Assembly (NCBI RefSeq): GCF_053078305.1
Contig: NZ_CP166879.1
DNA length: 64,000 bases
Direction: 5' to 3' (one strand)
Every line of letters starts with the position of its first letter. The stretch's first letter is position 1. Below the pieces are notes generated by a model that was not told the DNA's origin, searched no databases, and saw nothing but the letters and a program-made list of their open reading frames with translations. The translations under genes and the position numbers were made by a program. Below, piece by piece: positions 46,168 through 46,201 of the stretch.

Positions 46168-46201
46168 TTAATGCGCATCGGCTTAAGCCGATGCGCATTA
46201 A
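46168..46201. other. Perfect 34-bp palindrome abutting the MFS gene stop
   Basis: ttaatgcgcatcggctt/aagccgatgcgcattaa is exactly self-complementary; no U-run follows on the minus strand. Confidence 0.6.

Follow-up and report, generated by a model that had tools for sequence, protein, structure and literature searches.

A perfect palindrome between two transporter genes of the Escherichia coli yih locus is one allele of a predicted, conserved intercistronic mRNA hairpin

Between two co-oriented transporter genes of the E. coli genome stretch analysed here (64,000 nucleotides, referred to as the window) lies a 34-bp sequence, TTAATGCGCATCGGCTTAAGCCGATGCGCATTAA, that is a perfect palindrome, and its symmetry raises the question of whether it acts as DNA or as RNA, and whether it acts at all. 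The palindrome occupies window positions 46168–46201 and consists of two directly adjoining 17-nt arms with 100% complementarity. It follows the TAA stop codon of the upstream gene, MFS1 (46205–46203), after the single base 46202, exactly as the original prediction had described it; all descriptive statements in that prediction are correct. In the direction of transcription, the stem thus begins 1 nt past the stop codon and its GC core 5 nt past it, in an intergenic spacer of 98 nt. The palindrome and the genes next to it are as follows.

47706–48716, minus strand: Zn-dependent alcohol dehydrogenase (ADH)
46203–47636, minus strand: MFS1, an MFS transporter of 477 residues, with its stop codon at 46205–46203
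46168–46201, minus strand: mRNA stem-loop (the 34-bp palindrome in DNA), predicted by folding and by covariation in orthologous loci
44755–46104, minus strand: MFS2, the downstream cistron, a transporter of 449 residues in the metabolite:H+ symporter family (ShiA-like)

A palindrome of this size is not expected by chance. The expectation for zero-spacer arms of 17 nt in 64 kb is approximately 4e-6, and the window contains no other perfect zero-spacer palindrome with arms of at least 8 nt. The 34-mer itself occurs once in the window even when three mismatches are allowed, and dinucleotide shuffles give no matches. When the sequence is folded as RNA, a check that had been proposed for it, it forms a stable stem-loop with a stem of 14–15 bp, eight G-C pairs, a UUAA loop and a folding energy of about −25 kcal/mol, which lies within the GC-rich, 5–15 bp range of intrinsic terminator stems. 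The first 50 nt 3' of the MFS1 stop codon fold with a z-score of −7.7 relative to shuffled sequences.

Between yihX and yihN, the window carries an alternative version of the yih locus, and the palindrome sits within it. BLAST comparison shows that homology to K-12 stops at 43804 and restarts at 52489, so that the replaced segment covers window positions 43805–52488; within it, only the aldolase-reductase-kinase-regulator part resembles K-12 (approximately 66% identity), and it does so in inverted orientation. The segment carries an eight-gene sugar-catabolic cluster (43878–52436; related loci are numbered L006–L033 in our survey). One strand encodes, in operon order, a YihU-like reductase, a LacD/YihT-like aldolase, the Zn-ADH, MFS1, MFS2 and an aldose 1-epimerase, and the opposite strand encodes a PfkB kinase and a DeoR-family regulator (51648–52436). 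The best models for MFS2 are metabolite:H+ symporter and ShiA, with scores just under their curated cut-offs. Elsewhere in the window, a stretch of approximately 2 kb between yiiE and fabY (38329–40372) is missing from K-12, and the annotation of strain PS10-3 places a transposase and a truncated hypothetical gene there.

This locus is the one described as the "short yih cassette (yihTUVW)" by Kaznadzey et al. 2025 (PMC12608037), who studied it in Nissle 1917, where sulfoquinovose does not induce it. That paper makes no mention of the ADH, either transporter, the epimerase or any hairpin, and its supplement holds no expression values for MFS1, MFS2, the ADH or the epimerase. When we scanned one genome per species, we found 28 loci with a relative of MFS1, and a relative of MFS2 lies downstream in 27 of them. 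It follows MFS1 directly in 22 loci; in five others, all outside the Enterobacterales, a YihU-like gene stands between the two. The block of kinase, reductase, aldolase, ADH, MFS1, MFS2 and epimerase is kept in Enterobacterales, Vibrio, Succinivibrionaceae, Sutterella and Alphaproteobacteria. Our comparison suggests that the "short yih cassette" is part of this eight-gene cluster, a distinct pathway with its own transport rather than a truncated sulfoquinovose cassette.

Some members of the cluster are damaged in individual strains. In the window strain, codon 65 of the ADH (Glu65 of the PGHE motif; 48522–48524, minus strand) reads TAA instead of GAA, and the ADH is therefore a pseudogene in this strain; neither PS10-3, a strain with 99.9% identity, nor ATCC 11775 has this nonsense codon. 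It could have polar effects on MFS1 and MFS2. In addition, MFS2 is annotated as frameshifted in E. coli 2014C-3338 (NZ_CP027452.1, our L036), one of the 19 strains that carry the perfect palindrome, a further sign of cluster decay in some lineages.

To see how the palindrome varies within the species, we surveyed 5426 complete E. coli genomes using both the exact 34-mer and a one-mismatch form of it as queries. The locus is found in 1328–1329 of these genomes, at a single site in each carrier, and the other 4098 are without it. The exact 34-mer is rare, as it occurs in 19 of 1328 carriers, always at the same site. For the one-mismatch form, which represents its own reverse-complement partner, 1308 genomes give a 100% match, and the remaining 20 carriers are the 19 perfect genomes and one other variant. 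All of the variation is confined to the loop-closing pair (palindrome positions 15:20), and the 14-bp stem is kept in all 1328 of 1328. This leaves three main alleles.

Window allele: loop-closing pair C-G in the mRNA
B2 type (ATCC 11775), about 866 genomes as estimated from identity classes: U·G in the mRNA
ATCC 8739 / O104:H4 type, about 443 genomes: C·A in the mRNA, with an extra A-U pair at the base of the stem

At least four different flanking haplotypes carry the perfect allele; all of them are B2-like in the sequence immediately next to it, and the outgroup Escherichia sp. has the ATCC 8739 state. The simplest order of the alleles is C·A to C-G to U·G. We also considered whether the palindrome had been perfected repeatedly by template switching; this may have happened but is superfluous, because the B2-like immediate flanks and the state of the outgroup can be explained by a single intermediate haplotype family together with recombination. 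The conserved feature is the 14-bp stem and not the perfect symmetry, which has no special role.

The same junction carries a hairpin in other genera. GC-rich hairpins of different sequence are located 1–8 nt past the MFS1 stop codon in Escherichia sp., five Citrobacter lineages, Mixta, Trabulsiella, Leminorella, Budvicia and Vibrio, with folding energies of −14 to −25 kcal/mol, and in most lineages no more than 1% of dinucleotide shuffles fold as well as the first 50 nt past the stop codon. Among the close relatives that can be aligned (n = 17), 91.2% of cells pair and compensatory changes are seen in five of the 11 base pairs. Even Escherichia sp. has a clean swap of A-U to C-G in the lower stem. 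A slid-partner control gives 25–50% pairing, and no shuffle attains the observed pairing or covariation score. RNAalifold recovers the same helix, and a 14-sequence set was also analysed for covariation. The orthologous stems are 8–13 bp long, compared with the 14–17 bp duplex of E. coli.

The hairpin is not universal. Pantoea sp. BAV 3049, Citrobacter sp. NCU1 and Tenebrionibacter, with spacers of 15–20 nt, lack it altogether, and Erwinia, Enterobacter and Phytobacter have a degenerate version (−7 kcal/mol). A strong second hairpin, CUGUGGGUGAAnUUCACCCACAG, followed by UUUUCUC, is seen in Erwinia typographi, Enterobacter sp. 10-1 and Phytobacter ursingii (L011, L029 and L031). This hairpin lies approximately 40–70 nt past the MFS1 stop codon, just 5' of the MFS2 ribosome-binding site, and has the look of a canonical terminator within the operon.

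Whether the symmetry is kept for the sake of DNA or of RNA can be read from the way in which it is lost. A protein-bound dyad or a cruciform would lose symmetry equally on the two strands. When each hairpin is folded both ways, the sense (mRNA) orientation contains 21 G·U pairs and the antisense four, which argues that it is the mRNA stem-loop that has been selected. The sense hairpin is also the more stable of the two by 2–10 kcal/mol in 10 of the 16 lineages outside Escherichia, among them Citrobacter, Mixta, Leminorella, Budvicia and Vibrio, with the Erwinia group and Succinivibrionaceae as exceptions. Judged on this comparative sequence evidence, the palindrome is real and non-random, and selection acts on its RNA structure and not on a DNA operator.

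The readings that place the palindrome at the level of DNA can be weighed against these data. According to one of them, a dimeric regulator, either the DeoR/CsqR-like repressor of the cluster or another protein, binds the palindrome to control MFS2 or to act as a roadblock; the original prediction had likewise offered an operator for the downstream gene. The perfect dyad, the internal palindrome ATGCGCAT found in each arm, and the presence of a DeoR-family regulator gene in the cluster would all suit such a site. In Nissle, however, the cluster regulator binds the divergent yihU'/kinase promoter region (PMC12608037), and neither that region nor the rest of the window holds a second copy of the 17-nt half-site with up to three mismatches. 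Inspection of the yihU'/kinase spacer shows no resemblance to the palindrome, ATGCGCAT is not enriched, and the CsqR papers give no DNA motif for comparison. Together with arms that covary instead of staying fixed and a symmetry that breaks toward sense-strand G·U pairs, these findings make an operator very unlikely. A second reading makes the palindrome functionless, as the remnant of a small mobile palindromic element, as a remnant of recombination, or as a quasi-palindrome perfected by a template-switch mutation. That perfection is polymorphic and rare, and that the hairpin is missing or degenerate in some genera, would agree with this. The palindrome is nevertheless present once per carrier genome and is therefore not a dispersed repeat, the outcome that a genome-wide search had been proposed to detect. 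Its distances from the edges of K-12 homology are 2.36 kb and 6.3 kb, so it is not an edge scar, as had also been suggested, and the hairpins that other genera carry at the corresponding junction of their orthologous clusters contradict a scar as well. Drift does not predict a stem that is invariant in 1328 genomes and changes by compensation across genera, and we consider the functionless reading highly improbable.

Similarity to known repeat and RNA families was also examined. Like REP and BIME elements, the palindrome is a GC-rich extragenic palindrome of about 35 nt between co-transcribed genes, and it has the short string GCC-GATGCG in common with them; unlike them, it occurs once per genome rather than in hundreds of copies, has no GTAG/CTAC end, and is perfectly rather than imperfectly symmetric. 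It is absent among the REP consensus matches of the window, and its best local alignment to REP is equalled by 12–16% of shuffles, so that the mismatch to the REP consensus noted at the outset is borne out, with similarity at chance level. The window has REP elements of its own at 6965–6998, 12043–12122, 20969–21273, 37125–37222 and 62335–62368, and the one at 20969–21273 is a BIME-like array of four tandem inverted REP pairs with a spacing of approximately 92 bp. Two Rfam candidates were rejected. The match to psRNA14 (RF02351) scores 33 bits against a gathering threshold of 60 bits (E = 4e-4 to 1.5e-3) and reflects a generic long hairpin with a similar loop, and ES003 reaches 16 of 37 bits, also below threshold.

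At the level of RNA, the palindrome could end the yihU'-aldolase-ADH-MFS1 transcript as an efficient factor-independent terminator, with MFS2 and the epimerase forming a separate unit under their own promoter. It shares with intrinsic terminators and attenuators a GC-rich hairpin, an A-rich 5' flank and an A/U-rich 3' flank, and a U-tract is present in some orthologues: five metagenome loci of Citrobacter-like type have UUUUUCG or UUUCUCA after the same hairpin. The second hairpin of the Erwinia, Enterobacter and Phytobacter spacers, with its UUUUCUC, has a T-score of 3.5. We took a U-tract to be about five or more U among the 8 nt that come immediately 3' of the stem on the transcribed strand. 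By this measure E. coli has none, as the tail on the transcribed (minus) strand, UUCAAACUG, has no U-run and the sense tail, whether taken as UUCAAACU or, past the GC core, as AUUAAUUC, holds fewer than five U in eight. Only on the plus strand, where the tail is ATTATTTCTT, does the terminator scan flag the hairpin, and the minus strand is left unflagged; T-scores are 1.3–1.8 in E. coli and 0.03–2.5 in the orthologues. Because most lineages have a weak U-tract or none, the conserved feature is the hairpin itself, and because the Citrobacter-like loci do carry one, the family spans a range from terminator-like to plain hairpins. The original assessment that this is not a classic intrinsic terminator is therefore right for E. 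coli, with the qualification that a Citrobacter-like sublineage has a real U-tract. The palindrome is also intra-operonic, 64 nt upstream of a co-oriented gene, and no sigma-70-like promoter is found at the scan threshold in the 64 nt before MFS2. The constant order of MFS1 and MFS2 (27 of 28 loci), together with spacers of just 15–20 nt in three genera, indicates co-transcription. Taken together, we find an efficient terminator rather unlikely. An RNase III processing site, at which a long perfect duplex would be cut and the two halves of the mRNA separated, was part of an earlier suggestion that the palindrome is an RNase III or stability element. RNase III substrates are duplexes of about two helical turns (approximately 20 bp). 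The uninterrupted 14–17 bp duplex of E. coli is longer than an exonuclease barrier would need and longer than the stems of other genera, which speaks for such a site, but orthologous stems of 8–13 bp are short for the enzyme; what is shared across genera is a short GC-rich stem and not a two-turn duplex, and the loop-closing pair varies freely. We therefore give RNase III processing very little weight, while the stability half of the suggestion is favoured by the cross-genus compensation and the bias toward the mRNA strand.

The palindrome is not the only predicted RNA structure in this operon, and three further elements were identified.

47666–47687, minus strand: second intercistronic stem-loop, GGCGCUGCGUCACGUCAGCGCC, in the ADH-MFS1 spacer, with no U-run
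46109–46131, minus strand: conserved helix, UUUCUCGCC-UAC-CAGGAGAGGAA, burying the MFS2 Shine-Dalgarno sequence (GGAGAGG)
43828–43866, minus strand: hairpin past the last operon gene (aldose 1-epimerase), UUGCGAAAAAGC...GCUUUUUCGCAA

The ADH-MFS1 hairpin is 96.8% paired with four covarying pairs in 12 sequences; together with the palindrome hairpin, it gives MFS1 a conserved stem-loop on either side. A strongly conserved leader, ACCCUACAACAAU...AAGGA, follows the ADH-MFS1 hairpin. In the helix over the MFS2 Shine-Dalgarno sequence, 97.6% of cells are paired and one pair covaries (GC to UA or the reverse). Just 5' of this helix is an invariant CAG|AUUUCUC (CAGAUUUCUC), which fits the RNase E motif RN|WUU as given in PMC5927463. 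The hairpin at 43828–43866 has A- and U-runs inside its stem and no free U-tail, and it is unflagged by the terminator scan; it is likely to be the end of the transcription unit. We left a small CCAC...GUGG hairpin (46145–46157) out of the element because it is weak (−4 kcal/mol) and Citrobacter sp. R56 and Trabulsiella have a deletion of its region.

With modest confidence, and on the strength of sequence comparison, we favor a reading in which the palindrome is an intercistronic protective and/or leaky-terminator stem-loop that splits the fate of the MFS1 and MFS2-epimerase parts of the transcript. The stem-loop would form a few nucleotides past the MFS1 stop codon in the polycistronic mRNA of the eight-gene cluster, where it would act at the RNA level as a structure that forms or protects a 3' end. 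As a terminating ribosome would cover the 5' arm, the hairpin could form only after its release. Either endonucleolytic cleavage in the 64-nt downstream spacer or occasional termination at the weak A/U-rich tail would then generate a 3' end, and the stem-loop would block 3'-to-5' exonucleases, so that under this proposal the upstream part of the transcript, through MFS1, would outlive the distal MFS2-epimerase part. Distal translation may be damped further by the conserved helix that hides the MFS2 ribosome-binding site. We infer these effects on decay, read-through and the ratio of the transporters from what the sequences show directly, namely that the structure exists, where it lies, that compensatory changes have conserved it and that it is specific to one strand.

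Several features of the junction agree with published cases of this kind. Protective intercistronic 3' stem-loops have been associated with differential operon decay in malE-malF and menBCE (Dar & Sorek 2018, PMC5927463). As in those operons, a stable stem-loop stands just past an internal cistron, with no requirement for a U-tract; the structure is kept in orthologous operons of other enterobacterial genera; there are several hairpins per operon; and a site resembling RN|WUU lies downstream. The layout of two hairpins, the Shine-Dalgarno helix and CAG|AUUUCUC thus fits the published differential-decay model (PMC5927463). The likeness is one of sequence, and there are differences: most of the protective structures in Dar & Sorek 2018 are inside the next open reading frame whereas the palindrome is in the intergenic spacer, and the malE-malF structure is a REP element, which the palindrome is not. 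A second precedent is papBA, in which a 5' hairpin protects the mRNA after RNase E cleavage (PMC5927463). The CAG|AUUUCUC sequence 5' of the MFS2 Shine-Dalgarno helix, and the hairpin 5' of MFS1, resemble such a cleavage site followed by a protective structure, a likeness that is again one of sequence. Unlike the papBA case, the helix 5' of MFS2 also hides the ribosome-binding site, so it would lower translation and not only protect RNA.

Besides the covering of the 5' arm by a terminating ribosome, two observations count against the protective reading. The UUUUUCG that follows the same hairpin in the Citrobacter-like loci suggests that the ancestral hairpin terminated transcription rather than protecting the transcript, and the loss of the hairpin where the spacer is 15–20 nt, along with its degeneration in the Erwinia group, indicates that it is dispensable in some lineages. 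A more far-reaching possibility, which we regard as doubtful, is that the palindrome hairpin, CAG|AUUUCUC, the MFS2 Shine-Dalgarno helix and the hairpin before MFS1 together make up an undescribed, cluster-specific cis-regulatory RNA module. If this were the case, the operon mRNA would be processed so that the ratio of two obligatorily paired transporters is set or conditionally switched, for example the ratio of an importer to a product exporter.

For the palindrome itself the outcome is a clean negative, as the striking perfect symmetry belongs to a single allele of a conserved mRNA hairpin between cistrons, which is neither an operator nor a mobile element nor a recombination scar but an ordinary element of an already well-known kind. 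For the locus, the "short yih cassette" of E. coli gains four further conserved genes and conserved RNA structures that its published description does not mention, and the eight-gene cluster, published so far only in this truncated form, is widely conserved. The natural series of three alleles (C-G, U·G and C·A), together with two covarying hairpins around MFS1, may offer a test case for differential decay within an operon.
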